In this document: piece by piece, positions 762 through 36,301 of the stretch
Layout: the number at the start of each line of letters is the position of its first letter
Position numbering within the stretch: position 1 is the stretch's first letter
NCBI GenBank assembly: GCA_963746995.1
Contig: CAVVDF010000006.1
Span: forward strand, 15,403-79,402
Length of the DNA: 64,000 nt
Source: an uncultured Actinomycetes bacterium
GTDB lineage: Bacteria; Actinomycetota; UBA4738; HRBIN12
Direction: 5' to 3'
Made by a program: the position numbers and the translations under genes
Notes under the pieces: generated by a model
Databases searched by the model: none
What the model saw: the letters and a program-made list of their open reading frames with translations, nothing else
Told to the model about the DNA's origin: nothing

Positions 762-2699
762 TTGTTGCGACCCAAGCGACGGCTCCGTCGCACGGCGGCG
801 CTGGCGCTGCTGTTGCCGTTCGCATACGCAGTGCTCCCGGCCGCAACGCCATCCATCGCCGCACCCGCCGGATCCGCGCACGTGCGAGTGAACCAAGTCG
901 GGTATCCGACCGCGGTCTCGAAGCGCGCCTATCTGCTCTCGACCGATGACCAGACCGGGGCGACCTTCACGGTCCGCACGGGCGCCAGCCCGGCGTTCAC
1001 CGGCACGGTCGGCGCGGACCTCGGTCGCTGGAGCAAGACGTACACACACGTGTACCCGATCGACTTCGATGCGCTCTCAACCGCGGGCACGTACACCATC
1101 CAGGTGGCGGGCGCGATCCCGGCGACGTCGCCGTCCTTCCGGATCGGAACGGGAACCGAACTGTATGCGCGGAGCCTGACGAACGCGCTGAGCTTCTACC
1201 GGAACGAGCGCGACGGCGCGAGCTACATCCCGTCGACCCTCCGGACCGCCCCGGCGCACCTGCACGACGTGAACGCGATGACCTACCTCACGCCGCACGC
1301 GAACGCGAGCGGCCGATTCTCGGGCGATCTTCGCCGCTCGACAGCAGGATCGACGCGTCCGGCGGCTGGTGGGACGCCGGCGACTACATCAAGTTCGTGC
1401 AGACGACGAGCTACACGGTCGATCTCTTGCTGGCCGGCGTGCGCGACTTCCCGGCGCAGATGGGACGCGGGTCCTCGACCTCCAACTTCACCGACGAGGC
1501 TCGGTTCGGCGTGCGGTTCCTGCTGCGCATGTGGAACGACCGGACGTCGACGCTCTACTACCAGGTGGGGATCGGCTCCGGGAACTCGGGCATCGTGGGC
1601 GATCACGACATCTGGCGACTGCCGCAAGACGACGACGCGTTCGGCGGCACAGACGCACGCTATCGCTACATCCGTCACCGCCCGGTCTTCCGCGCCGCGC
1701 CGCCGGGCGCCCCGATCAGCCCGAATCTCGCCGGCCGCCTCGCTGCCGCGTTCGCGGAGTGCTCGCAGGTGTTCCGTGCGTCCAACACGGCGCTCGCGAA
1801 CCGATGCCTCTTGGCCGGCGCGCATGTCTACGACCTCGCCGACACGACGCCCTCCGGCGACCTGCTGACCGTGATCCCGTTCAGCTTCTACCCCGAGGAC
1901 GAGTGGCTGAGCGACATGGAGCTCGGCGCGACCGAGCTGGCGATGGCGACCGCGGCGACCGGGCTGCCCAGCCGGCGTGCCGCACACCTCGAGGGACTAC
2001 CTGGAAGACGCCGCGCACTGGGCGTCGCAGTACATGCAGAGTTCGTTCGACGCGGCCGACACGCTCAACCTCTACGACGTGTCCGGGTTCGCGCACTACG
2101 ACCTCCACCGCGCGATCCGGGCCGCAGGGAACCCCGCCGGTCTGGAGACGACGCAGGCGGCCTTGCTCGCCGACATCGCGAAGGCGCTCGACGGCGCGCT
2201 CGCGCAAGCGGCCACCGATCCCTTCGGGTTCGGGTTCCCGTGGGCATCGTGGGACACGACGTCGCACGGCGCCGGTCTGTCGGTGATGGCGAGCGAGTAC
2301 GACGAGTTGAGCGGCACCGATCGGTACGCCGACTGGCGCGTGCGCTGGCTCGACAACATCCTCGGCGCCAACGCATGGGGAACCTCGCTGATCGTCGGGA
2401 GCGGCTCCACGTTCCCCCACTGCATGCAGCATCAGGTCACGAACCTGATCGGCTCGCTCGACGGGTCGCCCCCGATCCTGGCCGGCGCCGTCGTCGAGGG
2501 GCCCAACGGCACCCTGTACCAGGGCTCGCTCGCCGGCATGGTGGCGTGCCCGCCCGACGGCATCGACGTGTTCGCCGCCTTCAACGGCAGCGGCGCGAAG
2601 TTCCGAGACGATGCGGAATCCTTCTCCACCGTGGAACCCGCGATCGACCTCACGGCCAGCTCGCCGCTCGCGTTCGCGCGGCAGATGGCGGGCCGATGA
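762..2699 (+). pseudogene. secreted glycoside hydrolase family 9 endoglucanase (N-terminal Ig-like CelD_N domain plus GH9 catalytic domain); reading frame broken twice
   Basis: Three successive ORF pieces (762-1868, 1397-2722, 1977-2699) lie in frames 0, 2 and 0 and together reconstruct one protein. It has a Sec signal peptide, an Ig-like N-terminal domain (VRVNQVGYPT...TFTV), the GH9 motif DASGGWWDAGDYIKF, and a C-terminal catalytic-domain segment. The frame switches fall near 1310-1335 and 1960-1985. Confidence 0.75.
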
Positions 2700-2718
2700 C
2701 CGAACCAAGGGAGGACAC

Positions 2719-3512
2719 ATGAAGCGCGCACGACGAGCGACGATCGTGGCGGCGATCGCCCTGATCGCGACGTCGATCGGATGGAGCCAGCCGGTGCTCA
2801 CCGCCCACGCGGTGACGCCGGTGGTGGTCACGATCGGATTCGACGACGGCACGTTGGATCAGTTCGACGCACGCACAGTGCTGAGCGACCACGACATGAA
2901 CGCGACCTTCTTCATCAACAGCGGCTTCATCGGCGACGCCGACCATATGAGCCGGAGGCAGCTGGAGCTCCTGGCGAGCGACGGCAACGAGATCGGCGGG
3001 CACACCGTCGACCACGCGAACATCCAGCCGCTCTCGGTCATCGACGCGACCGCCGAGGTCTGCGACGACCACACACCCTGACCAGCTGGGGGTTCGACGT
3101 GACCTCGTTCGCGTATCCGTTCGGTTCCTACGACGCGACCAGTGAGGAGATCGTGGCGTCGTGCGGCTACACAAGTGCGCGCACCGTTTCGGGCGTCTCG
3201 ATCCACGTGGGCAAGAACAAGGTGGGCGAGACGATCCCGCCGGCTGATGCGTTCGCAACGCGCACGCCGCCCAACGCCAAGAAGGCGACGAAGCTCTCGA
3301 CGATGGAGCAATTCGTGCTGAACGCGGAGTCCGTCGCGCAATCGAGTGGCCAGAGCCTGTGGATCCAGTTCGTGTTCCATCGCTACTGCGATGCGCACTG
3401 CGGCGCGTACACCGTGCAGCCGACGAAGTTCGACGCACTGCTCGACTTCCTGCAGACGGAGGAGGGCGCCGGCCGGGTCAGCGTGCAGACGACCGCCGAG
3501 GCGATCGGCTGA
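2719..3512 (+). pseudogene. polysaccharide deacetylase (carbohydrate esterase 4 / NodB-like), secreted; one frame break
   Basis: GGAGG RBS, then ATG 2719. Signal peptide, then NodB motifs TIGFDDG and HTVDHANI. The C-terminal half (SWGFDVTSFAYPFGSY...) continues in the ORF 2781-3512, with a frame switch near 3065-3085. Confidence 0.7.
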
Positions 3513-3521
3513 GCGGAGGCG

Positions 3522-4103: not shown

Positions 4104-4832
4104 CTAATCCTTGAAGTCGGGCTGGGTCCGTTCGACCATCCGCAGCATCGCGGCCCAGTGCAGCCGGCCCCACTCGAGCATCCCCTGGCCGGTGAACTGC
4201 TCTCGCGTGCGATCGATCGTCTCCGAAGCGATCGGTGTGAGCGGGCCGAGGCCCGAGGTGAGCACCTGGAGTTGCGCGGCCTTCTCGAGCATGTAGAGGT
4301 CATCCATCGCCGACCCGAGCTCGCGACCGGCGACCAAGATCCCGTGGTGGCGCAGGAACATCACCTCGCTGGTGCCGAGCACCTTGGCGAGACGCTCGCC
4401 CTCATCGAGATCCGCCAGGCCCTCGTAGCGCTCGTCGTAGGCGACACGATCGGTGAACTGGAGCGAGGTCTGGCTGATCGGCTCGAGATGCTGCTCCTCC
4501 TTGACGGCCAGGGCCGTCGTCCACGGCTGGTGGGTGTGCAGCACGACGGTCGCCTGTGGGCAGAGCCGGTGGATCGGCGAATGGATCCCGATCCCGGTGG
4601 CCGGCGCCGTCCCGCTGATCGGCGTGCCGTCGATACCGACCACCGCCAGGCTGGAGGCCGTCACCTCCGAGAAGTGCAGCCCGAACGGATTGATCAGGAA
4701 CCGGTCGTCGTGCCCGGGCACCAGTATCGAGAAATGATTCGAGATCCCCTCATGGAAGTCGTAGAGCACGGCGACGCGGAATGCGGCAGCGAGCTCGATG
4801 CGAGCCTCGCGTTCATCGGCGGGTGGGTTCAT
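4104..4832 (-). CDS. class II aldolase/adducin family protein (fuculose-phosphate-aldolase-like)
   Basis: 242-aa ORF with aldolase_II-type segments (HFSILVPGHD, VVLHTHQPW, MFLRHHGILVAG). Confidence 0.8.
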   Translation of the reverse strand: MNPPADEREARIELAAAFRVAVLYDFHEGISNHFSILVPGHDDRFLINPFGLHFSEVTASSLAVVGIDGTPISGTAPATGIGIHSPIHRLCPQATVVLHTHQPWTTALAVKEEQHLEPISQTSLQFTDRVAYDERYEGLADLDEGERLAKVLGTSEVMFLRHHGILVAGRELGSAMDDLYMLEKAAQLQVLTSGLGPLTPIASETIDRTREQFTGQGMLEWGRLHWAAMLRMVERTQPDFKD

Positions 4833-4944
4833 CGGCGTCCTCCACGGTCAGGGTGACCCGGATAACGTAGCTGCCCGCGTACGCGCCCGCCACCTGCATC
4901 GTGGCCCCCTCACTCCCTCGGCGTCGGCGTGGCAGACTTGCCCC

Positions 4945-5223
4945 GTGCCTGACGACGAGCTGCTGACCCGCGCCGAACGGGCCCTGACCGAGATCAAGGT
5001 CAACCAGGGACTGTCTGAGGAGCACGAGGCGGTGCTGGCCGCGCTGCGCATCCGCCTCACGGGGAGCGACCCGACATCGCTCGAGGAGATGCTCGCGGCC
5101 GCGAGCGACGATCGCCAGACGAGCCTCGACGAGACCATCGCGGCGGTCGAAAGCCAGCCGAAGCCTTCCCTGGACGACCTGTTCGCCGAGGAGCCGAAGC
5201 CGCCTCCCGACTGGCCGTCCTGA
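4945..5223 (+). CDS. hypothetical small acidic protein, translationally coupled (TGATG) to the downstream P-loop gene
   Basis: GTG 4945 is in frame with ORF 4798-5223, and the stop overlaps the ATG of the next gene. No recognisable domain and a weak RBS. An upstream ATG 4798 would overlap the aldolase gene on the opposite strand. Confidence 0.3.
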   Translation: MPDDELLTRAERALTEIKVNQGLSEEHEAVLAALRIRLTGSDPTSLEEMLAAASDDRQTSLDETIAAVESQPKPSLDDLFAEEPKPPPDWPS

Positions 5224-5748
5224 TGGCCGATCGCTCCGATGCCGCCGCCGTGTTGATCACCGGCGTGTACGGCACCGGGAAGTCGACGCTCGTGGAGGCG
5301 ATCGCCGGCGAGCTCGAGGAGCGCAGCGATCCGCTACGGCGCGCTCGACCTCGATTGGCTCGGCTGGTTCGACCACGGCGTGCCCGGTGGCGGCCACGAG
5401 GCGGGCTGGCCCGTGAAGCTGAAGAACGTCGACGCCGTCGTCGGCAACTACTACGAGACAGGCGTGCGCCGGTTCGTGCTCGGAGGCTCGATCCTCACGC
5501 ACGCGACGATCGAGGAGATTCGAGCCGTGCTCGCGATGCCGATGTTCGTCGTGCGCCTAACCCTCCCGATCGAGGAGATCGAGCGCAGGCTCTCGTCGGC
5601 GGTCACCGCGGGCCGCGAGGACAACATCCGCGTGACGCGTGCGTGGGTCGCCGAGGGACGCGGCGAGGGGATCGGCGATCTTGTGCTCGTCAACGATCGC
5701 CCGATCCTCGACGCAGTGAACGACGTGCTTACCCACCTGGCGTGGTGA
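5223..5748 (+). pseudogene. P-loop NTPase / small-molecule-kinase-like protein; one frame break
   Basis: Walker A VLITGVYGTGKSTLV in ORF 5223-5972. The conserved remainder (IRYGALDLDWLGWFD...VLVNDRPILDAVNDVLTHLAW) sits in ORF 5380-5748, with a frame switch at about 5326-5334. Confidence 0.55.
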
Positions 5749-7174
5749 GCCCGTCCGCGAGGAGCCGGGCACCGATCTCTCGCACGACCAGCGGCACGAG
5801 GTCCACGTCCTCGGGCCTCGTCCGCCAGTTCACCAGGGCCGGGCGGAACGCGACGCGGCCGCCGTACTCGGTAGCGCCGAAGAACACGCGCCCGTCGAGC
5901 AGCGCCGCCTCGCCGATCCGGCGGTTCAGGTCGTTGAGCTCGGGACCGTCCTGCCACCCGTCGGGGCGATAGCGGAAGCAGACGATGTTCAGCTGCACGT
6001 CAGCCAGGCGCTCCAAGTCGGGCGCCGCATCGACGGACATCGAGAGCCCTTGAGCGAGGTCGAGGTCGTGTTCGACGATCGCACGGTAGCCGTCGCGGCC
6101 GTACGCACGCAGTGTCGCCCACACCGGCAACGACCGCGCCCGCCGCGACATCTCCGGTCCGAGGTACCCGAAGTTCGGCTGTGGATCGTCGATATCGGGC
6201 AGGTACGCGGCGCCCGATCCGAAGACGGCCGGTAGCAGGGCCGGGTCGCGCACGAACGCGAAGCCGTTCTCGTAGGGCACGTTCAACCACTTGTGCCCGT
6301 CCGCGATCACCGACTCGGCGCGCTCGACGCCCTCCACGAGATGCTTCGTTCGCGGGCTCACGGCGGCGAACAGCCCGAAGGCTCCGTCGACGTGGAACCA
6401 GGCATCGTGGCGCGCGGCGAGGTCCGCCATCGCAGGCAGCGGATCGAAGTCGCCGGCGTTCACCTCGCCGGCGCTCCCGATCACGATCGCGGGCGCGCCG
6501 TCGAGATCCCGGAGGGCGGTCTCCATCGCGTCGAGGTCGACACGACCGACATCGTCGCGGGCGAGCTTGTGCACGCGGGACCGGCCGATGCCGAGCATCC
6601 CGAGCGCCTTCACGTCGCTCGGATGGGTGTACCCGCCACCGAGGACGGTGATCGGGGGCGCCGCGCCCACGCCGAGCTCATCGATGTCCACACCCGCGCG
6701 CAACGCGCACCAGCGGCGTGCGCACGCGAGCGCCACGAAGTTGGCCATCGTGGCGCCGGTGGTGAGGACGCCTCCCCACGACGCCGGCAGGCCGAACAGG
6801 CTCTTCAGCCAGTCGATGGACACCTGCTCGAGGCGGGCAGCCAGCGGGGTGGAGACCCACGCTCCCGGATTCTGATCGAGGGTCGTCGCCAGCCAATCGG
6901 CTCCAAGCGCCGCCGGGGTGGTGCCCCCGTCCACGAAGTGGAAGAACTTCGGACCTGCCGAGTGCACGGCCGCGTCGAACCCGCCGACGAGTTCCTGCAG
7001 AGCAGCCAACGAGCCGACACCCTGCTCGGGCAGGGGCCCCCCGAAGGTCGCCGCGACCTCGTCGGCCCGCGGATCGCGTACCGGGCGGTCGGCGAGGGTG
7101 TCGAGGTAGTCACGCGACTCGTTCGCCGCGAAACGGATGACGTCGGGAAGCTCATCGGGATCGGGTCGACTCAT
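5729..7174 (-). CDS. pyridoxal-phosphate-dependent amino-acid decarboxylase (group II; aromatic-L-amino-acid/L-2,4-diaminobutyrate decarboxylase-like)
   Basis: 481 aa from ATG 7174 (MSRPDPDELPD...). PLP-lysine motif SVIADGHKWLNVPY and a typical group II decarboxylase fold signature throughout. Confidence 0.8.
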   Translation of the reverse strand: MSRPDPDELPDVIRFAANESRDYLDTLADRPVRDPRADEVAATFGGPLPEQGVGSLAALQELVGGFDAAVHSAGPKFFHFVDGGTTPAALGADWLATTLDQNPGAWVSTPLAARLEQVSIDWLKSLFGLPASWGGVLTTGATMANFVALACARRWCALRAGVDIDELGVGAAPPITVLGGGYTHPSDVKALGMLGIGRSRVHKLARDDVGRVDLDAMETALRDLDGAPAIVIGSAGEVNAGDFDPLPAMADLAARHDAWFHVDGAFGLFAAVSPRTKHLVEGVERAESVIADGHKWLNVPYENGFAFVRDPALLPAVFGSGAAYLPDIDDPQPNFGYLGPEMSRRARSLPVWATLRAYGRDGYRAIVEHDLDLAQGLSMSVDAAPDLERLADVQLNIVCFRYRPDGWQDGPELNDLNRRIGEAALLDGRVFFGATEYGGRVAFRPALVNWRTRPEDVDLVPLVVREIGARLLADGLTTPGG

Positions 7175-7224
7175 GGACGTCGATGGTACGCCCTGCGACG
7201 GTGGTCGATTCCCGGGCGAAGACC

Positions 7225-7352
7225 CGTCAACAAGGTGACGGAGGATATCCCCATCCACGCAGGAACCCGTCAATCGCTTGACGGGTGAGCGACGTCAACC
7301 GCCTGACGAGATCCCTCGTGAACACCCGCGACGCGCGTCAACCTGTTGACGG
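7225..7352. promoter_or_regulatory. array of four CGTCA-N6-TGACG palindromes (putative operator array) upstream of the decarboxylase gene
   Basis: The four sites are cgtcaacaaggtgacg (7225-7240), ccgtcaatcgcttgacgg (7267-7284), cgtcaaccgcctgacg (7293-7308) and cgtcaacctgttgacgg (7336-7352). Spacings are 43, 25 and 43 bp. They lie in the 163-bp gap between the decarboxylase start and the NYN gene stop. Confidence 0.5.
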
Positions 7353-8435
7353 GATGCCGAGCACGTAGTCGCCGTCGTCGGCGTCCCACTCGAGCGAGAC
7401 CACGCCCTGTGTTGCTGCCGCCTTCGCGAACTGGAGGAACCCTCCGTACCCGAACTTCTTCTCGCTGAAGTCGGGCTGCACCTTCCGCACCTTGTTCTTC
7501 AGGCCCGAGAGGTGTGCGACCTGACCCTTCGCCTGTAGATCGCCGACCACCGACTGGAGCACCGCGAACGCTTCTGTCTCGCCTCCGTGGGTCGGCAACG
7601 ACACCTCGGGATCGCCCTTCACAGAGCCCGACGACAGCTCGATCACGTTGCGCGACGCCAGCAGCCGCAACAGTTCCCCGAACGCACGGAAGCCGTAGTC
7701 GGCCTCGCTGAACGTCGGATCCTTGCGCAGGAGCGCGCGTTTGATGTTCGAGGCGAGCACCGCGCCCCCCGACGTTCGCTCGAGGCCGGCGACCGTCTGG
7801 GCAACGCGCACCGCCAACTGATCGATATCGCCGGACCCCGCGTCATCAACCTGCTCGATCTCTTCGACCGCCGGCGCGGCCGCAGCCGCCTTCTTTGTCG
7901 CGCCCGACCCGCCGCGGCCGCCTCGCGACCTGCGCCGGCCCGCGCCCTCCGGGACGTCCACACCCTCCAACGTCTCGTAGAAGAGGAACTCGTCGCACGC
8001 CGGCGGGAGGAGCTTCGACGTGGAGTCCTTGATGCCGACGCCGATCACGCGCTTGTTCAGCTCGCGGAGCTTGTGCACCAGCGGCGTCAGGTCGCTGTCA
8101 CCGGTGCAGATCACGAATGTCGAGATGTACTCACGTTCGAAGGCCATCTCGAGCGCATCGACCGCCATCTTGATGTCGGCGGCGTTCTTGCGTGACGTGC
8201 CCATCCGCTGTGGGATCTCGATCAGCTCGACATGGCCGCGCGTGAGCATCCGGCGGTCTTCCTCGAAGGCCGACCAGTCCGCGTACGCTTTGCGCGCGAT
8301 CACCCGCCCGCGCTCGGCCAGCGCGTCGAGCACCGGCTTCAGGTCGAAGGTGAGGCCGCCGAGCGCTTCGCGCGCCCCGATGGCCAGGTTCTCGTAGTCC
8401 AGGAACAGCGCGATCCGTTCTTCGTCGGTATCCAC
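7338..8435 (-). CDS. NYN (LabA-like) domain protein with C-terminal OST-HTH/LOTUS domains
   Basis: 365 aa with GTG start. N-terminal NYN signature (ALFLDYENL...ICTGDSDLTPLV), a Gly/Arg-rich linker, then OST-HTH-like repeats. Confidence 0.75.
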   Translation of the reverse strand: MDTDEERIALFLDYENLAIGAREALGGLTFDLKPVLDALAERGRVIARKAYADWSAFEEDRRMLTRGHVELIEIPQRMGTSRKNAADIKMAVDALEMAFEREYISTFVICTGDSDLTPLVHKLRELNKRVIGVGIKDSTSKLLPPACDEFLFYETLEGVDVPEGAGRRRSRGGRGGSGATKKAAAAAPAVEEIEQVDDAGSGDIDQLAVRVAQTVAGLERTSGGAVLASNIKRALLRKDPTFSEADYGFRAFGELLRLLASRNVIELSSGSVKGDPEVSLPTHGGETEAFAVLQSVVGDLQAKGQVAHLSGLKNKVRKVQPDFSEKKFGYGGFLQFAKAAATQGVVSLEWDADDGDYVLGIPSTG

Positions 8436-8462
8436 GTGGTCAGCCTAGTGCCCGTCCATCGT

Positions 8463-9224: not shown

Positions 9225-9283
9225 GCGACCTCCTGACATGGGACGCGACGCGAGCTCTCTCGACACAGGATAGGGTCGCCCGC

Positions 9284-11631: not shown

Positions 11632-13717
11632 ATGGACCAACGTGAGCAGGTGGCGCGCCCGTCGGCCGATGCGGCTGCGGCCACGCACAGGCGTCGTCGG
11701 CCCACGGGCGCACCCCCGCCGCTGCCCAAGCACGTCGGCTTCACCGGTGTGCTCTGGCTCGCCCTGCTGTTGGTGGTGGTGGTGGCCGGCTGCCTCTGGC
11801 TCCGCGCCGATCCCGCGACGCTCGACAGGTTCGACGCGAGGATCACCGACGCCGTCATCTCGATGCGCGCCGGCTGGCTCGACACGCTCGCCCGGAGCCT
11901 GCACTCCGCGGGCTCGCGGGTCGGCCTCGCCGTGTTGGGGCTCGCGCTCGTCGTCGCCGCCTGCTGGTTCCGGCGCTGGCGGCACCTCGTTGTCTGGATC
12001 ATCTGCCTCGCCCTCGCCGGGGCGGCGGTGATGGGACTGACCTTGCTCGCTGAGCGAGCGAGGCCCTTCAGCATTCAGCAACTCGGGGCGTGGGAGGGCT
12101 ACGCGACCCCTTCGATCCCGATCACCGCGATCGCGGTCTGCGCGATCGGCGCGGCGTACATGCTGGTCGTCGCCGGTCGGCCACGCTTCTGGGCGAAGGT
12201 CGCCGTCGCCATCGTCGTCGCGTTGGCGGGCACGTTGCGGATCTATCTCGGCGTCGACCACTTCACCGACGTCGTCTTCGGGGCGATCGTCGCGATCGCC
12301 ATCCCGCTCGCGGGCTTCCGCGCATTCGCTCCCAACGACCTGTACCCGATCTCCTACGGGGCGCGGGGCAAGGCTGCGCACCTGGACGTAACCGGCCGAC
12401 GCGGAGAAGCGATCCGGAACGCGATGCAGGATCAGCTGGGCTACACAGTGCACGACATCAAGCCGGTCGGACTTGGAAGGATCCGGCGGGTCGACGCCCT
12501 TGAAGATGACGGTGACCGACGAGGACGGCCGCGACCGGACGGTCTTCGCCAAGCTCTACGCCAACACCCACGTCCGCGCCGACCGCTGGTACAAGCTCGG
12601 CCGATCCATGTTGTACGGGCGGCTCGAGGACGAGACGCCGTTCAAGACCGTTCGACGGTTCGTGGAGTACGAGGACTACACGCTTCGCCTGCTCGGCGAG
12701 TACGGGTTCTCGACGCCGGCGGCGCTCGGCATCGTCGAGATCACGCCCGAACGCGAGTACCTCATCGCGATGGACTTCTTCGACGACGCCGTCGAGATCG
12801 GCGACGCCGAGGTGGACGACCACGTGATCGACCAGGGCCTCACCATGATCCGGCGGATGTGGGACGTCGGGCTGTCGCATCGAGACATCAAGCCCGCGAA
12901 CCTGATGGTGCAGAATGGCGAGCTGCGGCTGATCGATGTCTTCTTCGTGCAGGTGCGGCCATCGCCGTGGCGACAGGCGGTCGACCTCGGCAACATGATG
13001 CTGGTGCTGGCGCTCCGCTCCGACGCGCACAGGGTCTACGAGGCCGCGTTGCGGTACTTCACACCCGACGAGCTGGCGGAGGCCTTCGCCGCCACGCGCG
13101 GTGTCGCCAGCCCCTCGCAGCTACGCCAACAGATGAAGCAGGACGGTCGGGATCTGCTCGCCGAGTTCCGAACGATGGCACCCGCACGCCGCCCGATCTC
13201 GGTGCAGCGTTGGAGCATCCGACGCATCGCACTGATCCTCGTCACCCTCGTGGTACTGCTACTGGCCGCGTTCACGGGCGTCGCGCTCTTCTTCCCGACC
13301 CGGGGCACCGTGAACTCGCCGACCTGCGGTACCGAGCAGACGATGCAGCTGATGGCCCAAGCGGTGCCGAGCGCGACGCAGCTGCCGTGTGTTTCGAAGC
13401 TACCGCTCGGCTGGGGTGTCGGCACCTCGGAGATCGTTCGGGGGCATGTCCTACTCGCCGTCGGTCTGAGCTCGGGCACTTCCACCGAGGTGACCGTGAC
13501 CTTGACCGAGACGTGCCCCGAGCCGGTGGACGGGACCACGCAGATCCCCTTCGAGGGCGGCTGCGTCACCTACCACTCGTCGATCGATGACGCCACGGTT
13601 CCGTCCTTCGAGCCCGGTGGGGGGCTTTCCTTCGTCCAGCGGGAGGATCTCGTTCGGACCGTGGCCGACGACGAGGAACAGATCCTCTGCGGAGCAGGAG
13701 CTCCGCCCTGCCCGTAA
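11632..13717 (+). pseudogene. PAP2-like membrane domain fused to a protein-kinase-like (Kdo/RIO/APH-like) domain, then a TM helix and a Cys-containing extracytoplasmic tail; one frame break at the junction
   Basis: The PAP2-like part is 11632 to about 12470 (RIYLGVDHFTDVVFGA). The kinase-like part is 12473-13717 (EGSGGSTPLKMTV..., HRDIKPANLMV, IDVFF). The frames join as ...GYTVHDIKPVG|LEGSGGSTPL near 12470. Alternatively these are two separate genes. Confidence 0.5.
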
Positions 13718-13923
13718 CCATCGCCTCACTGAACCTGCCACCGCGATTGCCGCGGCTTTCCTCAACTGCCTGGGGTTCCCGGGACGATACCTCTACCGAA
13801 AAGGGGGTATGGGGGATGAACACGTTGATGTCCAGTGGCGTCAGCATGCCGTCGGGCGGCCGCTCGCCGAGAGGAGCGACGGGATCGGGTCGAACCGGCG
13901 ACGGCACGGCGGTGGTCGGCGAG

Positions 13924-19871: not shown

Positions 19872-19880
19872 GGTCGCGCG

Positions 19881-21761: not shown

Positions 21762-21767
21762 CCCGGC

Positions 21768-22953: not shown

Positions 22954-25279
22954 TCAGCTCGAGCCTGCGACGATGAGGGCATCACCGAGCGCTTGCACGA
23001 CGCGGTCGATGTGCTCGGGACCGAACGCCAGGGGTGGTCGGATCTTCAAGACGTTGTCCAGCGGGCCGGTCGATCCGACCAGCACCCCCCGATCGCGCAT
23101 ACCGTTCTTCACGGCGCTCGCGAGCGCCGCGTCTGGCTTGCCGCCGGCACCGACCAGTTCGACACCCGTGAGCAGACCGACGCCGCGCACGTCGCCGATC
23201 GCCGGCGCCCCGATCCCGAGGATCGCGGTGCGCAGCGCGTCGCCGGTCGCCGCCGCCCGGCCGACGAGACCCTCATCCTCGAGCACGTCGAGCACCGCAA
23301 GCGCGGCGGCACACGCAACCGGGTTCCCGCCGAAGGTCGAGAACCACTCCGTGGTCTCGGCCAGGCGCTCGGTCAGCTCGCGCCGGGTGACCACCGCGGC
23401 AACAGGATGCCCGTTGCCCATCGGCTTGCCCATCGTGACGATGTCGGCCGCCACCCCCATCGCAGCGAACGACCACAGGTGCGCACCGGTGCGGCCGTGC
23501 CCGGCCTGGACCTCATCGGCGACATAGACCGCGCCAACCTCGTGGGTCCGCTCGCCGAGCGCGCGCACATAGTTGGACGGCGGCGCGAGGATCCCGTCGG
23601 AGGTGAATCCGCCGTCGACGAAGGTGGCCGCCGGAAGCAGACCCCGCTCCTGCAGCCGCTCGGTCGCGCGGAGGAGATCGTCGGCCGCCTCGTCCGGCGG
23701 CATAGGTGTGCGATACGGATCGAGCGGGTCGAACACCTCGACGTGCCGAGGGCGGTAGCCACCGATCCATTCCTCCGGCGAGACGTCGCTGATCGCTTGG
23801 GTCACGCCGTGGTAGGCGTACCTCGTCACAAGGGCGCCTCGGGCGTCCGTCCACGAGGTGGCCAGACGCCAGGCCGTGTCGTTCGCCTCGCTGCCGGAGT
23901 TGACCAACAGGACAGTGTCCAGGCCCGAGCCGGCGGGCATGCTCGCGACCAACCGCTCTCCCAGCTCAACGGCCGCCTCGTGGAGGTAGCGCATGTTCGT
24001 GTTCAGCAGCCGCGACTGTCGCGCGATCGCATCGCTCACCCTCGGGTGGCAATGCCCAACCACCGGCACGTTGTTGTAACAGTCGAGGAACCGTTCGCCA
24101 TCGACGTCGACGAGCCACACGCCGTCACCGCGAACCAGGTGCAACGGGCGCCCGTAGGTCAGCGGCGACAGAGCCGGCCCGAACACCCGCGTCCGACGGG
24201 CCGAGAGTGACGCATCCTTACTCGGTGACGCCGCGCGCAGCCGCGCGCGCAACGCGTCGCAGCCCTCGGCAACCCAGAAGTCGAGCGCAGGCCAGAGCGT
24301 CTCCTCCCAGCCGCGAAGATAGGCGTTGTCGGGATGCCGAGCCGCACGCCAACCGAACAACACCGCCACGGTCACGAGCCTCGTGGCGAGCAGGTCGGGC
24401 AGCACGTCCAACTCTTCCGGTTCGAGCGCGGTCACCGAGCGGTAGCCGTCGATGAAGCGCATCGCCATCGGCACCGTCTCGCGACGCGTCGCGACCGTCC
24501 AGCAGCGATTCCAGGGCGGAGGACAGGTCGCAGACGAGCGCCGTGTGGCTCATGTCGCCCCAGTCGATGATCCCGCTGATCCTCCCGTCGTCGTCGACCA
24601 GCGCGTTGTCGAGCGTCACGTCGCCATGGATCACCTGCGAGCGAAGCGCCGGCCACCGCGGCCACACTTCTTGTGCGAACCGCTCGAGGACGCGATCGAC
24701 GAGTGCCCGCTGCGCCGGCTCCCCGATCGCATCCGCCATCGGCCGAAGCGCCGCCGCGTGCTGCACGTCCCACAACAGCACCCGCCCCGCCGACGGGTGG
24801 AAGAACGATCGCATCGCACGCCCCAGTCGCGCGATCGTCACCCCATGGTCGTATAACGCATCCCCGCCGAGCTCCCGAGGATCCGCCGACGCACGCCCGG
24901 GCATGAACGAACTCATCCGCACCAGATGCCCGGCGCCGTCCGCGCCCGCTACCTCGGTCACATACGCCCCGGGGCCATCCGCCGGATCCGCGCCTCGCAG
25001 TGGCATCGGTTGCGCGAGCGGCAGCGAGGGATCTGCCGCTCGAGCGTGTAACGCCGCCTCGGTCTCCATGTCGACGATCGCACGCTGCTCGGACGCGTTC
25101 GAGATCTTCAGGACGCCGGCCGGCCCGTCGGGCCCATCGATCCGAAACCCCTGGTCGCGTTCGCTCCCGAGCGGGTGAGCATCCCCGGCGCTGTCGAACA
25201 GGTCCAGCGCGAGCGCAGATGCCGCCGCCGGCGTGAACGCCGGCGGCTCCCCCCGAAGGACGTCGCCGTGCAGCTCCAT
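22954..25279 (-). pseudogene. aminoglycoside-phosphotransferase-like kinase domain fused to a class III aminotransferase (hydroxylysine-kinase/phospho-lyase-like architecture); one frame break
   Basis: The APH domain runs from ATG 25279 (HGDVTLDNALVD, IIDWGDM). The class-III aminotransferase domain is in ORF 22954-24474 (VVGHCHP, ADEVQAGHGRTG, TMGKPMGNGHP). The frames join near 24480-24495. Confidence 0.65.
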
Positions 25280-30500: not shown

Positions 30501-31216
30501 AAGGGCTCAGCCTTGCGGAGCAGACCGACTCAACCGACCTGCGCGCCAACACGCTTGTGCATACGGGTGACGTGCGACGGTTCGCCGGCCGACCGGCGGA
30601 GGCCGAGCCGTTCGAACGTCGCGCGCTGCGTCTCTTCGAGCGTCGCGGGGCGACCGCGCAGGCCGATGCCGTGAGAGCCGTCGTGCGCCCGGCCGAGACC
30701 CCCGAGCCCATGGAGGATCCGCCGACCCACACGGCCGAGCCGTCGGGGCCCACGGCGGCTGATCCGGGCCCCGAGCGCGCGTCACACGATGCGGGCTACA
30801 CGGTGGCCGACGACCTGATGGCACTCACGATGGCCACACCGGACCCTGAACGAGGCCGATGGAGCCGGACACGAGTCCGGCTCCATCGAGACGCCCTCCC
30901 TGGGATCCACGCCCGGCGCGGAGGCCGAGTCGCAGCGTCGCTGGTTCAGCCGCTGACCGGTGGGGGCGGCACCTCATCGTCGGGCGGCGTCGGGGGACCC
31001 ACCGGCGCGCCCGGGACCATGTCGGCCACGGACCGATGCTTGCCGGATTCCGTCTCGACCCTCTCGACGACGGCGTCGAGGGCTTTCTTCGCCGACCCCA
31101 TGCCCTTGTCGCTGCCGCCCCCACCGGCGAACGTCTTCATCAGGGTCGCGGCGAGCCCGTCGAGCGAGCCGCCGTTACTCCCGGTGACGAGCACCTCCGG
31201 CACGACGGTCACGTGA
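27500..31216 (+). CDS. large STAND-type NTPase with a degenerate N-terminal class III adenylate/guanylate cyclase-like domain, an AAA (NB-ARC-like) domain and a helical/TPR-like C-terminal region; the 3' end is uncertain
   Basis: The start (GTG 27500 or ATG 27506) overlaps the pilT stop. A cyclase-like segment (LRIGVDATQV...GDAIRDL) lacks the metal-binding Asp residues. The P-loop is VVVTGEPGVGRTRLAEEL. A long Ala/Leu-rich helical region follows. The last roughly 90 codons (30946-31216) overlap the flotillin gene on the opposite strand, so the true C-terminus may be about 30950. Confidence 0.6.
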   Translation: MGMDSAGTATAPPVTYPVFGAVALGITGRSVYDVIEQVGGMFESVGAVFEGSPDAPGTLIALLPPSEDAAIRAARMALQAQAVAPALRIGVDATQVRAKKEQDARWQQVIDSAVRLQKAARTGESIAGDAIRDLSAGGAATQALAVGEETFLLLTGVSDEVAAPRAVPTAAVAPAVPMPEPAAAPAEAEPLPPQTARAPGQPQTAPDVTPVAADDPEPVPIPVLEQPVADSPSSEVQPNAGTAAGGAPPVMNPAVRFAGPLIGREQQLADLRGRFDRVVTDRAAACVVVTGEPGVGRTRLAEELLQTSGADVRRFRVGCLPVDDGGARWPLAALIEACTDVSPTDPPAQVQERLAAHLADAPDAERLISELLAMQALDGRLQTDDVRWAIRRLLEVSVGDEPTILVIEDADRPGAGFIRLLADVVAVMRDSALLVVLTAVRESEAVPAIRLAPLPPTEAAALVRSLLGAVDPGVDDAIAARTSGSPFDIEQTLAVLTETGALAPGQGTWMPLADMRSVPLPDGPTGLVRRRLQTLHPHALAVLGMAAVVGEIVQPASLLEIIPPDARGTMPGHLTTLVDRGLLVDVGDGEYRFRHALVRAATTGGVPAWAQAMAHLRVARDLEIGAGDRLWRVADRVGGHLAAACARTPDPPTSDRDDALELLTWAAAAAVEHGDLDGAARLEYLSASLVDHDPVRRAELLYLAAEHGATAAPERPADREIAEAALAASVAGDDVDWRVRLLRARLRTTAGHEDALEGARATADDAIAAFDDDALSWALASAWALRGLVHAARAQNGMVADDLARAADNAAAAGRWREETAALRGAAAALLDGPAGVEDAEARCRGFLGRVRGPLAEHDLRGAIALLQARRAAFDEARATIAGSAAALEELGAAADLAVLLRRSAEIETLAGEGPAAELQMQRAMAAVTNARDERLRAEIAGAFAHLLAADDDRLDEALALADVAETHAGGIAAQVAWRMARARVMVRRGRGAHAERLVREGLSLAEQTDSTDLRANTLVHTGDVRRFAGRPAEAEPFERRALRLFERRGATAQADAVRAVVRPAETPEPMEDPPTHTAEPSGPTAADPGPERASHDAGYTVADDLMALTMATPDPERGRWSRTRVRLHRDALPGIHARRGGRVAASLVQPLTGGGGTSSSGGVGGPTGAPGTMSATDRCLPDSVSTLSTTASRAFFADPMPLSLPPPPANVFIRVAASPSSEPPLLPVTSTSGTTVT

Positions 31217-33045
31217 CCGTCACTGACGGCCTGGGCGATGGCGACAACCGCGGTGGCACCCGAGCCAAGCGCGTCGGTCTGCGCCTCGTAGCCGACGGCG
31301 CGGGCGAGCCCCTGCGCCTCGATCGCCGAGCTTCCGCGACACCGATCGCCTGCGTCCTGGCGGCCTCCGCCTCACCGGTCATGCGGGTGAAGTTCGCCTG
31401 ACCCTCGGCCTCCGCCGTCCGCGCCGCCGCATTGTTCTTCTGCACGTCCACGTCGACCTGCGCGCGGGCCAGCGCGAACTGCATGTCGGCCGTGCCCTTC
31501 GCCTTCTCGACGTCGATCCGGGCATGCTGCGCCTCCTGCTCGCGCGCGAAGGTCGCCGCTGCTGGACCGCGAGCTCGCGCGCCGACAGCACCTCGACGAG
31601 TGCATCCGGCAGCACGACGTCTTGGATGTACACACCCTTGGTCTCGACGTTGTACTTGCCCAGGTACTCGGTTATGTAGCGCTCGGCCTTGTCCTGCACC
31701 TCCTGGCGTGTCTCGATGAACTGCACCGCCGGCAGTCCCTGCAGCGTGTTGCGGAAGTAGTTGCCGACCGCCGACTGCAGCACCTCGTTCACGAGGTTCA
31801 GCATCGTGCCCACCATCGAGATCACGCGGGGCGCCTGTGTGTCGGGCACGTGGATCTGCACCTGCAGGTCGATCAGGAACGAGAAGCCTTCGCGGCTCTT
31901 CGCGTCGATCGACGACAGTTGCGCATCGAGCGCGTGTGCGTGCGAGGTCGCCTCTGCCCAGTTCAAGGTGAGGATCGCCGTCGGGACGACCTCCGCCTGA
32001 TACACGCGCGGGTTGATCGCGTACTTGCCGGTGCGCAACGGCTCCGACCAGATCCCTCGGTGCCCCGGGTGCACGATCGAGCCGAACTTGAAGGCCTCGC
32101 CGCTCGTATCCTCCGTCGACAACCCGAGGAACGACTTCACGACCGCCACCTCGCCCTGGTTCACCACGAGCATCGGCACGCGTTCGACCTTCACCAGGAA
32201 CGGGTTGAGCAGGTAGGCGCCGTACAGCAGCGGGTCGTGTTGCAGTCCGATCTTGCCGCCGTTGTCCAAGAACGCCTGGAAGTCCTGGTAGTTGTTGTGC
32301 AGCCGGTTCTTCGAGCCGAGCAGCACGTCGATGATCTCGGCGTCGCTTCGCCCCTCCGATTCCATCTGCAGGATGTCGTCGGAACCACCGAGCCGTCCGG
32401 CGATGTCGCCCGACGGGAGCGGATCACCCTCCTGCGTGGTGACGATCCCGACGTAGTCCTGCCCGCCCTCAGGGGCGATCCGCACGACCTGCAGGTCGGA
32501 GGCCGACAGACCGAACGACTCATAGGACAGCCCGCTCGTTTGCGTGATCCCCAGCACGTCGGGCGAGACCGGCAGCCCGAAGGACTGCACATAGGTCAGC
32601 ACGAGGAAGCCGATCGGATGCATCGGGACCAACGACCCGGGGGAAGCACCGGCCGCTGCACGCCCTGCTGGCCGCCCAGTTCCACGAATGCGCGTACGTT
32701 GTCGAAGTTGCCGAATTCGGGCTTGTAGACGGCGCTCTTCGCGCCGGCCGGCAACGCGTGGCCGATCTGTGCGAGGACGACGCCGATCCCATCCGCCGGC
32801 ACCTGCACCCAGGGGTACTTCTTCACCGAGTACAGCAGTGCCGGACGGAAGCGCAGCCCCGGCATCAACAGGTTCGCCTGGTAGCCGGCTTCCCGCTTGA
32901 AGGCGATCACGTGGCCTTCCCTGAGGCGCCGACCCAGCCGCTTGGCGACGAGTCCTACCTCCGTCGGGCCGATGTAGCTGAACGACGCCAGCACGTAGAG
33001 GATCACCAACGCGACCACGATGATCGTGATCAGTGAGGAACTCAT
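30946..33045 (-). pseudogene. flotillin / SPFH (band 7) family protein (YqiK/FloT-like); reading frame broken three times
   Basis: Start ATG 33045 (MSSSLITIIVVALVILYVL...). The gene is reconstructed from ORFs 32596-33132, 31379-32632, 31209-31484 and 30946-31212. Frame switches fall near 32600-32630, 31551-31562 and 31327-31337. The flotillin C-terminal region EAEGQANFTR...VVPEVLVTG is present. Confidence 0.7.
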
Positions 33046-33194
33046 CTCCCGCACGCTCCTTCCGCAGATGTTGCGGTCTTGTGACGATTCGCCATGCCCT
33101 GCCTCGGCGGTTCTATCCGAAGACACTCGCACGGAACGTTCCTGAGCGCGACCGCGCGCTCAAGGAAGTACCGTCCGTCGGCCGATAGGAGGAC

Positions 33195-33845
33195 ATGCTG
33201 CAATCATCCCGCCTCCGCCTGATCCTTGCCGTCGTCGCCGTTGCCCTCGTTTTGGGCGCCGGGAGCGCCCTTGCCGCCAGTGGCGACGATGTCACCGTCG
33301 CTGATCCGTGCCCGTCGATCGAGCCGTCTCTTGAGCCGTCCGTTGAGCCGTCCGTTGAGCCGTCCGTTGAGCCGTCGGTCGACGCATCCGTGGAGCCCTC
33401 CGTCGAGCCATCGGAGGAGGGAACGACCGATGGGTCCGAGGATCCAGGCGAATGCTCGGATCCGAGCGAGGCGCCCGAGCCGAGCGAGAACCCCGATTCT
33501 GGCGAGGCAGTAGATCCCACAACCGCTCCTGAACCCGACGCCGAGCGCACGGCGGCCTGCTTCGACGCCGCGAAGGTCGATCCCGAGGCCGAGCCGACCA
33601 CCGAGAAGGTGACCGGTCTCGACAACGCGATCCAGCACGTGCTCGACAACTGCATCAAGAACCCGCAGGCCCCTGGCCTCCTGAACGCTCTCGAACACCT
33701 GCGCGCGAACCAGGAACGGCACGCTGTGCAGCAGGCAGCCAAGGCAGAGCGGACTGCTTCGAGGGCGGCGGCGAAAGCCGCGCGCGACGCAGCGAAAGCG
33801 GCGGGCGAGCACGGCAACAGCGGCGAGCACGGGAACAGCCACTAG
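33195..33845 (+). CDS. secreted low-complexity protein with (V/L)EPS tandem repeats
   Basis: AGGAGGA RBS, then ATG 33195. Signal peptide. Eight 12-nt repeats encode EPSL/EPSV units. Acidic Pro/Glu-rich region and an Ala/Lys-rich C-terminus. Confidence 0.6.
   Translation: MLQSSRLRLILAVVAVALVLGAGSALAASGDDVTVADPCPSIEPSLEPSVEPSVEPSVEPSVDASVEPSVEPSEEGTTDGSEDPGECSDPSEAPEPSENPDSGEAVDPTTAPEPDAERTAACFDAAKVDPEAEPTTEKVTGLDNAIQHVLDNCIKNPQAPGLLNALEHLRANQERHAVQQAAKAERTASRAAAKAARDAAKAAGEHGNSGEHGNSH
33321..33416 (+). repeat. 8 x 12-bp tandem repeat (consensus gagccgtccgtt) inside the EPSV-repeat gene
   Basis: The copies are gagccgtctctt, then gagccgtccgtt x3, then gagccgtcggtc, gacgcatccgtg, gagccctccgtc and gagccatcggag. 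Confidence 0.7.
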
Positions 33846-33868
33846 CGGCCCGTCGGACGTATTCGAAA

Positions 33869-33896
33869 GGGCCCCGCGCGGAGCGCGGGGCCCTTT
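33869..33896 (+). terminator. intrinsic-terminator-like hairpin: 11-bp GC stem (gggccccgcgc / gcgcggggccc), 3-nt loop, then TTT
   Basis: The perfect inverted repeat is flanked by aaa and ttt, 24 bp downstream of the EPSV-repeat gene stop. Confidence 0.5.
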
Positions 33897-33916
33897 CGCG
33901 TGGCAGCATCCCGGCC

Positions 33917-35045
33917 ATGGATGTCGCGATCGTCGGCGGCGGCGTGATCGGCCTCGCGTGCGCGAACGCGCTCGCCGAGGCGGGTGTTGACGTCTGCGTC
34001 CTCGAGGCTGCGGACGCGACCGGCCAAGGGTCCTCGGCGCGCGCCAACGGCGGCTTCCGAGCGCAATTCACCACGACGAGCAACATCGCGTTCTCCCGTT
34101 ACTCGATCGAGGCATTCGAGGCGATGCCCGCCGAGCAGATCGGGCTGCACCAGACCGGGTACCTCCTCGTCACTTCGACCCGACAAGGCGAGCGGTCGTT
34201 GCGGGCTGCAGTCGACCTCCAACGGGGTCTCGGCGTCGATACAGCATGGCTCGATCCCGATGCGATCCGTGCGCGCGCCCCGTTCATGCGGATGGACGGC
34301 GTGCGCGCGGGCAGCTTCCACGCGCGCGATGGATTCCTGGATCCGGCCGGTATCTGCCAGGTGTACGCGCATTCGGCACTCCGACACGGCGCCGCGCTCC
34401 GCACGGCTGCCGCCGTCACCGCGATCGAGCGATCGGCCCGAGGCTTCACCGTGCATGCGGGACGAGACGGGGTCCGCGCCGACCTCATCGTGAACGCAGC
34501 CGGAGCCGATGCCCGTTCCATCGCTCTCCTTGCCGGATCCGACCTGCCGGTCGAGCCGGTGCGGCGGAACCTCGCCCACGTCCACGACGTGCCAGGGCCG
34601 CTGACGCCGATGGTCGTCGACCTCGAGAGCGGCGTGCTCGTTCGCCGGGAGCCCGGCGGCGGCTGGGTGCTCGCCTACGCGAACCCCGCCGACCCCCCCG
34701 GCCGCGCCACGACGGTGGATCCGCGGTTCCTCGGAGACCTTGCTGAACGACTGCCCGTCCGGTTCCCCTTCCTCGTCGACCTGCCGATCGACCCGCGCCA
34801 GTGCTGGGCGGGGTTGTACCCGGAAACGCCCGATCACCACGCGATCATCGGCGCAGACCCCGCGGTGCCGGGGTTGCTGCACGCAGCGGGCTTCGGGGGC
34901 CATGGGGTGATGCACGCGCCCGCCGCCGGGCGGGCGATCGCCGACCTCGTGCTGACCGGTTCGAGCACCACGTTCGACCTGCGCCCGCTTGCGGCCGTCC
35001 CGGTTCGCCGAGGACGACCTGATCGTCGAGACCTCAGTGTTCTGA
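33917..35045 (+). pseudogene. FAD-dependent oxidoreductase (DAO family; sarcosine-oxidase-beta/glycine-oxidase-like); one frame break near the 3' end
   Basis: The N-terminus VAIVGGGVIGLACA is a dinucleotide-binding motif. The conserved C-terminal motif HAAGFGGHGVMHAPAAG is present. The family-typical end RPSRFAEDDLIVETSVF* lies in frame 0 and stops at 35043-35045, whereas the main ORF is in frame 2. The switch is at about 34985-34995. Confidence 0.7.
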
Positions 35046-35051
35046 AACCGT

Positions 35052-36301
35052 CTAGAAACGGCCGGGCGAGAACGGCGCGAGATCCACGCCGGCGTCGCCG
35101 TCGGTCAGAAGCCGAGTCACGAGCTGCCCGGTGATAGGTGCAAGCGTGACCCCGAGCATGTTGTGCCCGGTCGCGACCACCACGCGTGGATGGCCGGGAA
35201 CCGGTCCGATGATCGGGAGACCGTCGGGCGTGACCGGGCGCGGCCCGACCCATTCGTTCGTCCGGTCATGGAGATCAACCGCGCGGAGGAACGGAGCGGT
35301 CGCACGAACGATGGCGTCGATCCGGCGGCCGGTTGAAGCGATCCATCGTCCCGTCGAACTCCATCGTGCCGGCGACGCGCAGGCGATCGGGGTAGGGCGT
35401 GAGCATCACGTGCGCGTCCGGCAGATGCAGCACGTGATCGGGCAGTCGGTCCGGCCGCACCTCGAAGCTGTACCCCTTGCCCGGGTACAACGGGAGCTTG
35501 ATACCGAGCGGCGTGACGAGCTCGCGCGTCCAGGCGCCCGCCGACGACCACCACGCGGTCGGCGTCGACCGAGCCGAGCGCTGCGTCGATCTCGATCCCG
35601 TCCCCGAGATCCACGACGCGCCGCACGGCGCACGACGTGTGGATCACCACTCCCGCGGCGGCGAGCGACGTGGTCAGCTCGTCAACCAACACGCCTGCGT
35701 CGATCCACCGTTCCCCAGGCAGCAGGAAGCCGGCGACGACGCGTTCGGAGACGAGCGGCTCGATCGCGCGGACGGTCGCGCCGTCGAGGATCGGACCCGG
35801 CGGCCGGCACGCGCCCAGCGACGCCATCCTCTCGATGTGCGCGCGTTCCGACGCAGCACCATCGGCCGTCGCGTGCAGGGTGAGGTAGCCGTCGAGACGC
35901 GCGCTCGAGCCGATCCCGGCCTCGGCCATCGCGTCGTAGGCCGCGGTCACCCCACGTGCCAGCGCGACCATGGCGAGAAGACCGCGCTCGAAGGCGGCAG
36001 GCGTCGCTGCCTGCGTGAACCGTCGGATGAACCCGGCCATCCGCGGCATGACCGACGGGTGCACGTGCAGCGCCGCATCCGGGCGCCCAAGGTCGCGCAG
36101 CACGGCACGGACGGCGTCGGGTCCGGCCAACGGCTGGGTCATCGACGGGCAGATCGCGCCGGCGTTCCCACGAGAGGCGCCCGCCCCCGTCCGGTCGGCG
36201 GCCTCGAGGATCGTCACGTCGACGCCGGCACGACAGAGGAACCACGCGCACGACAACCCCACGATCCCCCCGCCGATCACCACGACGCGCTTGCGTGGCA
36301 T
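35052..36301 (-). pseudogene. FAD-dependent oxidoreductase (D-amino-acid dehydrogenase DadA-like); reading frame broken twice
   Basis: N-terminus VVVIGGGIVGLSCA. The middle segment PLYPGKGYSFEV... is in ORF 35275-35490. The C-terminus ...HNMLGVTLAPITGQLV...FSPGRF* stops at 35052-35054. Frame switches fall near 35530-35545 and 35322-35334. Confidence 0.7.

Follow-up and report, generated by a model that had tools for sequence, protein, structure and literature searches.

Pseudogene-rich, decaying genomes, such as those of Mycobacterium leprae and of recent host-restricted bacteria, have many genes interrupted by frameshifts. True decay is further marked by stops, deletions, relaxed codon-position patterns and breaks that are common to relatives, and it spares essential genes. 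Phase-variable contingency loci undergo reversible single-base frame changes; they depend on long homopolymer or simple-sequence tracts where switching takes place, and comprise few surface or restriction genes. Frame changes of a different nature occur in long-read metagenome-assembled genomes (MAGs). The MAGs of the MFD-LR collection derive from Nanopore reads only, with Flye assembly and a single round of Medaka polishing (PMC12313526), and Nanopore bins below 40x coverage require short-read polishing against frameshifting indels (PMC9262707).

The window analysed here is a stretch of 64,000 nucleotides from the MAG of an uncultured soil member of the Actinomycetota, in which long-read consensus errors appear to have been left uncorrected. 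It carries about 48 indels, a density of frameshifting indels of about 0.75 per kb that rises locally to as much as 4 per kb. As judged by alignment with orthologues, the breaks are real, occur in this assembly alone and lie in genes under purifying selection. We are highly confident that they are single-base consensus errors of what is probably a long-read assembly, presumably made without accurate-read polishing, and that the affected genes would be functional in the organism. The finding is almost certainly a data-quality warning rather than biology.

Breaks were detected by codon-usage Viterbi segmentation, followed by orthologue-guided localisation (Table 1). All 13 break positions listed in a preliminary description of the window are real against intact orthologues, with 12 lying within 10 nt of the listed position and the other about 30 nt away. 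The segmentation recovered 12 of the 13, the break at ~34990 being detected only via its orthologue, and stop-codon geometry excludes ordinary gene boundaries at 11 of these 12. Two other candidates, at 46991 and 62928, resemble ordinary gene boundaries and were left out of the count. A tblastx comparison of the window with all loci gave 132,000 matches, mostly spurious and high-GC, and the contigs with a conserved aldolase (P0244 and P0245) show no synteny with the window.

Table 1 Single-base indels localised in the window, with the positions given earlier for the same breaks (^, missing base; square brackets, inserted base)
Feature	Extent	Indel position	Strand	Change	Reference	Earlier position
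GH9 cellulase gene	about 762-2699	1329..1333	+	1-nt deletion, GGCGATCTT^CGCCGCTC	JGI soil orthologues	1320
GH9 cellulase gene		1965..1968	+	1-nt insertion, extra C at 1967, CTG[C]CCAGCC, CC to CCC	orthologue alignment	1970
CE4 polysaccharide deacetylase gene	about 2760-3509	3068..3072 (3070)	+	1-nt deletion, GACGAC^CACACC	orthologues	3075
P-loop kinase gene	5223-5745	5325	+	inserted A, GAGCGC[A]GCGATC	L147	5330
Second PAP2 gene	about 9930-10612	10156	+	inserted G, GGGCTC[G]ATCACG	homologues	10155
PAP2-kinase fusion gene	11632-13717	12472..12476 (12472)	+	inserted G, CTTG[G]AAGG	four relatives	12470
APH and class-III aminotransferase fusion gene	22954-25260	24479..24483 (~24481)	-	1-nt insertion	L060	24485
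STAND NTPase gene, 3' end	27500 to about 30965	30854	+	inserted G	L059 alignment	
Flotillin/SPFH gene	30969-33050	31326	-	1-nt deletion, GATCGC^CGAGC	L059 alignment	31332
Flotillin/SPFH gene		31554	-	1-nt deletion, GGTC^GCC, T in reference	L059 alignment	31556
Flotillin/SPFH gene		32644	-	1-nt deletion adjoining G5/G6 run	L059 alignment	32615
Intergenic		33849	.	1-nt insertion, GCGG[C]CCGTC	L059 alignment	
Sarcosine-oxidase-like DAO gene	33917 to about 35060	34986..34990 (~34988)	+	1-nt insertion near 3' end	L060	34990
DadA-like DAO gene	35055-36301	35329..35333 (~35331)	-	1-nt insertion	L060 425-aa orthologue	35328
DadA-like DAO gene		35543..35547 (~35545)	-	1-nt insertion	L060 425-aa orthologue	35537
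GNAT acetyltransferase gene	51676..52170	about 52059, 51790, 51726	-	3 breaks: deletion, insertion, deletion	L061	
leuA (2-isopropylmalate synthase)	54824..56428	55221, 55306, 55617, 55901, 56213	-	5 single-base indels	L061	
ilvC (ketol-acid reductoisomerase)	56429..57435	56615, 56804, 56823, 56886, 57149, 57161	-	6 single-base indels	L061	
ilvN	57486..58013	57654	-	1 insertion	L061	
ilvB (acetolactate synthase large subunit)	58014..59760	58088, 58257, 58558, 58582, 58619, 59063, 59096, 59244, 59521	-	9 single-base indels	L061	
Tandem array, 5 x 375 nt, sulfocyanin-like blue-copper domain	60327..62191		-	7 extra G's (+ strand)	array copies	

In the GH9 gene, the Pfam domains CelD_N and GH9 are found in different frames, and the profile is split over two frames (42–231 and 232–439) at the insertion; the upstream deletion was placed by frameshift-aware alignment with four intact JGI soil orthologues of 67–71% amino acid identity. 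The CE4 gene was aligned with three intact orthologues, and tblastn matches in relatives are unbroken over the junction. As the old frame reaches a stop just 10 nt after the CE4 break (~3069), this break rests on the orthologues. The P-loop kinase and PAP2 breaks were settled via L147 and a representative search, the GH9 and CE4 matches having swamped the metagenome scan. L147 is a JGI contig, 92.7% identical, with an intact 174-aa kinase orthologue, and the inserted A is the sole 1-nt indel in 5.1 kb of the window compared with it; three homologues of the second PAP2 protein (233–246 aa) align across its junction. The base inserted in the PAP2-kinase fusion gene faces a 1-nt gap in each of the four relatives (L001, L004, L005 and L011), two of which (L004 and L011) translate across the site in a single frame. 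The fused APH-aminotransferase orthologue in L060 is intact (771 aa), at a nucleotide identity (69%) too distant to place the break at base level. The sarcosine-oxidase-like orthologue in the same contig has 380 aa, and repair of the window gene brings back the C-terminus LRPSRFAE. The flotillin gene has an intact 701-aa orthologue in L059 (93.4% nucleotide and 98% amino acid identity). The adjacent STAND gene, previously taken to be intact, carries an insertion that shifts its final ~110 nt and lengthens the open reading frame by about 250 nt; the L059 orthologue ends about 250 nt sooner.

The breaks had been described as lying mainly within 762–36301. The densest patch is at 54.9–62.2 kb, comprising leuA (5 breaks), ilvC (6), ilvN (1), ilvB (9) and a tandem repeat (7). 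Within the 5 kb of the four branched-chain amino-acid genes (54.9–59.8 kb) there are 21 single-base indels; the DNA alignment with L061 is 90.7% identical over this whole block, and the leuA orthologue of L061 is intact (528 aa). Four of the six ilvC indels were confirmed independently with the JGI proteins P0123 and P0124, and the public gene call P0134 is a chimeric open reading frame produced by the ilvC breaks. The tandem array acts as an internal control, its five copies being near-identical apart from the extra G's, which give copy lengths of 375, 376, 379 and 377. The GNAT gene, previously described as broken at least twice, has three breaks, at positions that are approximate given the 49% identity of the 169-aa L061 reference.

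Contigs of JGI sample 3300086615 (L059, L147 and L148; 92.7–95.5% identical to the window) have intact open reading frames at each break site that they cover. Over 15.4 kb of comparison with these contigs, the only coding indels of a length other than 3n are those at 5325, 30854, 31326, 31554 and 32644. The remaining indels are in frame (3, 6 or 12 nt) or outside reading frames (33849 and ~7199), the latter being an 11-nt indel in a stretch that the segmentation assigns as non-coding, upstream of the start of the L147 orthologue. Single intact open reading frames are also found in more distant orthologues of GH9, CE4, the second PAP2, the PAP2-kinase fusion, APH-aminotransferase, both DAO genes, GNAT, leuA, ilvC, ilvN and ilvB. 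None of the window's breaks is common to any of the compared relatives. As the nearest intact references are 91–95% identical and so from another strain, the breaks could, strictly, be strain-specific.

Divergence in the affected genes is dominated by third codon positions. Projected on the frame of the intact orthologue, mismatches at positions 1/2/3 number 17/5/85 in ilvB, 9/4/55 in ilvC, 22/16/126 in leuA and 12/3/92 in flotillin; leuB, an unbroken neighbour, shows the same distribution (24/15/115). The four repaired genes have 95–98.6% amino acid identity, and frame repair leaves no internal stop in any gene, in agreement with the preliminary description. By these measures, the repaired genes are under normal purifying selection.

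That description had offered two explanations, long-read consensus errors and early pseudogenisation, the first of which is strongly supported. Genuine and very recent pseudogenisation, with many genes being lost by frameshift mutation, would accord with the presence of the breaks in the deposited sequence and, at a very early stage, with the lack of in-frame stops. It is nevertheless very improbable, given that no break is shared with a relative, that 21 frameshifts fall in four biosynthetic genes which are essential and whose divergence is concentrated at third codon positions, that inserted G's are in strand-biased excess, and that the private breaks of sister Nanopore MAGs are other ones, with essentially none in short-read MAGs. 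We likewise give little credence to a free-living soil actinobacterial population with dozens of very recent frameshifts, branched-chain amino-acid genes included; such a population would either be at the outset of massive genome decay or tolerate the breaks through an unknown RNA- or translation-level correction. Programmed recoding (ribosomal frameshifting or transcriptional slippage) and phase-variable contingency loci would explain the existence of frame changes and nothing else. Their probability is negligible, as the orthologues are single-frame at every site, the sites have no shared slippery motif, homopolymer or simple-repeat tract, and up to nine shifts occur within one gene.

The breaks are patchy, as had been described (chi-square over 4-kb bins, p = 7e-22), with 4 per kb at 55–59.5 kb versus 0 in the adjacent 2.6 kb (cimA and leuB). 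A clean-looking stretch, 17322–21482, is truly clean: when compared with a contig of 95.5% identity, it shows no 1-nt indel. The indels are more often insertions than deletions (23:7, p = 0.005), and on the + strand they involve G more often than C (19:5, p = 0.007). Among the 28 base-localised indels, the run length of the longer allele is 1 (n = 14), 2 (n = 10), 3 (n = 3) or 5 (n = 1), a distribution indistinguishable from the per-base background (0.61, 0.29, 0.08 and 0.025). Runs of at least 4 account for 1 of the 28, against 2.5% of bases in the background. This absence of homopolymer enrichment refutes the homopolymer origin that had been proposed, and it differs from the classical error mode of a well-covered Nanopore consensus. 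A motif in which G is inserted after C, as might arise from a methylation-linked error, was dropped, since 7 of 14 G insertions follow C versus about 53% expected (among non-G bases, with gap placement allowed for).

Consensus errors of this type would resemble read-level errors that persisted in the consensus, chiefly 1-nt insertions biased to G on the + strand, rather than homopolymer miscalls, and the patches probably reflect a consensus drawn from very few, strand-skewed or mixed-strain reads. A variant of this explanation, in which reads of co-occurring strains or species pile up on conserved stretches and yield a consensus of mixed origin that contains falsely inserted bases, the cause not being simple low depth, is possible but the less likely account. 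The most heavily affected patch, from leuA to ilvB, is also the most conserved part of the region (89–96% identical to L061, versus 84–85% for the clean cimA and leuB), insertions predominate in it, and microdiversity has been reported to influence MAG recovery (PMC12313526). However, ordinary conservation already predicts higher identity for the ilv genes, the one-strand G bias fits a few same-orientation reads at least as well, and the GH9, CE4 and DAO patches are not especially conserved.

The same detector finds 68 candidate breaks in 300.8 kb of loci from Nanopore-only MFD MAGs of the clade versus 5 in 114.3 kb from short-read MAGs (2.26 versus 0.44 per 10 kb; rate ratio 5.2, p = 9e-6), and 27 in the 64 kb of the window. 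In a conserved decarboxylase gene, nine private indels of non-3n length occur only in the MFD MAGs L018, L019 and L022, with none in eight short-read MAGs, and L001, L004, L005 and L061 carry breaks at places that are intact in the window. By these sequence comparisons, like breaks are a property of the sister Nanopore MAGs and not of the short-read MAGs. The window's proteins are recorded exactly on one public contig of 621,606 bp (sources NCBI and ENA); from the length of this contig, the source pattern and the Nanopore-only MFD-LR relatives, we infer a long-read assembly. It is most probably Nanopore-only (Flye and one Medaka round), as are its closest relatives.

The consequences are a matter of quality control only. 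The indels fragment or fuse gene calls in a public MAG, and the resulting 425-aa IlvC/LeuA chimera P0134 is now a cluster representative in a protein collection. Such errors skew pseudogene counts, coding density, protein-family statistics and estimates of how complete a pathway is; that for valine, leucine and isoleucine would appear broken. Homopolymer-aware filters would miss these errors, because they have no homopolymer association; frame-aware orthologue comparison detects them.

The window shares frameshifted genes with decaying genomes, but stops, deletions, relaxed codon positions and shared breaks are not seen, and leuA, ilvC, ilvN and ilvB are, with their 21 indels, anything but spared. 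It shares single-base coding frame changes with phase-variable loci, whereas it has no tracts and the genes hit encode housekeeping enzymes. Nanopore-only (Flye/Medaka) genomes and MAGs, the sister MFD-LR MAGs among them, have the same kind of private single-base indels fragmenting conserved genes; low-coverage bins are documented to need short-read polishing (PMC9262707, PMC12313526), and IDEEL-type truncated-protein tests screen for such indels. The textbook Nanopore case is the homopolymer length miscall, whereas in the window run lengths are those of the background and insertions dominate, mainly of G and on one strand, a pattern that looks more like read-level error left over where support was very shallow or came from one orientation.

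The frame breaks of the window are almost certainly consensus errors of long-read sequencing, an artefact of a known kind without biological novelty. Open reading frame (ORF) lists are uninformative by themselves, because the window has a GC content of 69%, and frame switches were detected by plotting GC3 for each frame and by Viterbi segmentation on codon usage, for which the window's long ORFs served as the training set. Same-strand switches were found at 1328, 1968, 3069, 5320, 10154, 12467, 24479, 31332, 31557, 32644, 35331 and 35522, matching 12 of the 13 breaks listed in the preliminary description; the other, at ~34990, was recovered through its orthologue only. At 11 of these 12 switches the old frame has no nearby stop, and these are therefore not gene boundaries; at 3069, a stop in the old frame follows 10 nt further on and the break is supported by orthologues. 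Pfam profile coordinates continue across the switches, with the GH9 profile divided over two frames (42–231 and 232–439) and APH and Aminotran_3 occupying overlapping frames. The Viterbi scan revealed many further switches at the right end of the window, in genes assigned by translation as leuA, ilvC, ilvN, ilvB, a tandem-repeat gene and the GNAT gene.

When genomes were scanned for the intact decarboxylase (5729–7273), matches came from 22 relatives at 66–85% amino acid identity, all uncultured Actinomycetota metagenome-assembled genomes (MAGs), comprising 14 'MFD...bin' MAGs and 8 short-read assemblies (SMAG k141, NODE and similar). The MFD-LR catalogue was built from Nanopore reads only, with Flye assembly and a single round of Medaka polishing (PMC12313526). 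Protein searches yielded closer material. Three contigs of one JGI sample share 93.4% (L059, over 28915–34973), 92.7% (L147, over 4260–9393) and 95.5% (L148, over 17322–21482) nucleotide identity with the window, and the L059 flotillin is intact (701 residues, 98% amino acid identity). The syntenic MFD locus L060 carries intact 425-residue and 380-residue DAO, flotillin, STAND and fused APH-aminotransferase genes; in the MFD locus L061, which has 90.7% nucleotide identity across the ilv–leuA block, ilvB, ilvN, ilvC, leuA, leuB and GNAT are intact. Intact GH9 and CE4 genes are present on 80 JGI soil contigs.

The breaks were placed by DNA alignment and by frameshift-aware alignment of proteins to DNA, and each of the 13 listed breaks corresponds to one single-base indel in the window. 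The breaks are thus real, but their extent had been understated: the 64 kb contain ~48 indels of a length not divisible by three, including 21 from leuA to ilvB and seven in the tandem repeat, and JGI proteins independently confirm four of those in ilvC. GNAT, said to be broken at least twice, has three. The STAND gene, previously considered intact, has a shifted 3′ end; its ORF (27500–31216, + strand, 1,238 residues) looks intact but is ~250 nt overlong, as the inserted G carries it into the opposite-strand flotillin gene.

Indels in the window, and mismatches to orthologues by codon position
Gene	Position	Indel	Mismatches at codon positions 1/2/3
GH9	1329–1333	deletion	
GH9	1967	insertion	
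CE4	3070	deletion	
P-loop kinase	5325	inserted A	
Second PAP2	10156	inserted G	
PAP2-kinase	12472	inserted G	
APH-aminotransferase	24481	insertion	
STAND, 3′ end	30854	inserted G (not listed previously)	
Flotillin	31326, 31554, 32644	deletions	12/3/92
Intergenic	33849	1-nt indel (not listed previously)	
Sarcosine-oxidase-like DAO	34988	insertion	
DadA-like DAO	35331, 35545	insertions	
GNAT		three indels	
leuA		5 indels	22/16/126
ilvC		6 indels	9/4/55
ilvN		1 indel	5/0/23
ilvB		9 indels	17/5/85
leuB (unbroken neighbour)			24/15/115

Over the 15.4 kb covered by JGI contigs (92.7–95.5% identical), the only coding-sequence indels not divisible by three are five breaks of window genes, and the JGI ORFs are intact at these positions. 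The remaining indels either keep the frame (3, 6 or 12 nt) or do not fall in a reading frame (33849 and ~7199). The latter, an 11-nt indel relative to L147, lies at the 5′ end of, or shortly before, the decarboxylase gene, whose ORF encodes 514 residues in the window and 481 in the L147 orthologue. Early pseudogenisation had been offered as the other possible origin of the breaks. Mismatches were counted by codon position after projecting the window onto the orthologue frame. In the projected ilvB, ilvN, ilvC, leuA and flotillin, substitutions fall overwhelmingly at third positions, a pattern indistinguishable from that of leuB; the broken genes retain 95–98.6% amino acid identity and, in agreement with the preliminary description, contain no internal stops. 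A gene with nine frameshifts, this third-position pattern and no stops is unlike one whose function is truly lost, and with the relatives intact, pseudogenisation is very unlikely.

Consensus error is further indicated by sequencing technology. With the same detector, Nanopore MFD loci of the clade gave 68 candidate breaks in 300.8 kb and short-read loci 5 in 114.3 kb (rate ratio 5.2, p = 9e-6); the window gave 27 in 64 kb. Private frame-shifting indels in the conserved decarboxylase gene are confined to MFD MAGs (four in L018, two in L019 and three in L022), and are mostly single-base insertions outside homopolymers. L001, L004, L005 and L061 carry breaks exactly where the window is intact. 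L061 has split genes of its own, at sites that in the window are intact or different: the calls break a second LeuA/CimA-like gene (13645–15257) into 351 and 205 residues and a Peptidase_S13 gene (15725–16958) into three pieces. Window insertions outnumber deletions 23:7, and G outnumbers C on the + strand 19:5, a strand asymmetry more in keeping with errors from the reads than with mutation. Exact matches to window proteins all lie on one 621,606-bp contig (NCBI and ENA), which in a soil MAG probably means long reads. Nanopore bins below ~40x coverage require short-read polishing against frameshifting indels (PMC9262707).

Homopolymer miscalls, suggested previously, were rejected as the source: among 28 base-placed indels the longer allele has a run length of 1 (14), 2 (10), 3 (3) or 5 (1), versus per-base backgrounds of 0.61, 0.29, 0.08 and 0.025. 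The distribution is patchy, as described, and extremely uneven (variance/mean 9.2; chi-square p = 7e-22), with ~4 indels per kb at 55.2–59.5 kb, none in the adjoining 2.6 kb of cimA and leuB, and none relative to L148 at 17.3–21.5 kb. We infer that the patches are probably covered by very few reads, by reads of one orientation, or by reads of mixed strains. Indel density jumps from 52.1–54.9 to 54.9–59.8 kb alongside identity to L061 (84–85% to 89–96%), which could reflect related-population reads cross-mapped onto conserved genes, or ordinary conservation alone.

Five tandem 375-nt copies, near-identical (99%), occupy 60327–62191 (− strand); the seven differences setting them apart are all G insertions. 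Each unit codes for a blue-copper domain of sulfocyanin (SoxE)-like type, and the array adjoins Rieske and cytochrome c genes. In the short-read relative L014 the domain occurs once (68% identity), and the array could be a recent genuine amplification, an assembly over-expansion, or a repeat collapsed in the short-read MAG.

In practice, the indels corrupt gene calls already in public protein collections. P0134, a public call at 56161–57435 (− strand), is a 425-residue chimera arising from an ilvC frameshift, in which the IlvC N-terminus is followed by out-of-frame read-through and an HMGL-like LeuA start. It represents its own cluster, and assembly errors have thus reached protein databases.

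Two of the broken genes are fusions. One (11632–13717, + strand) joins a PAP2 phosphatase domain to a protein-kinase/RIO-like domain and is kept as a single ORF in L004 and L011. The other (22954–25260, − strand) fuses an APH-type kinase to a class-III aminotransferase, with a 771-residue counterpart at 16735–19050 of L060, and presumably resembles the kinase/phospho-lyase pairs for hydroxylysine or ethanolamine.
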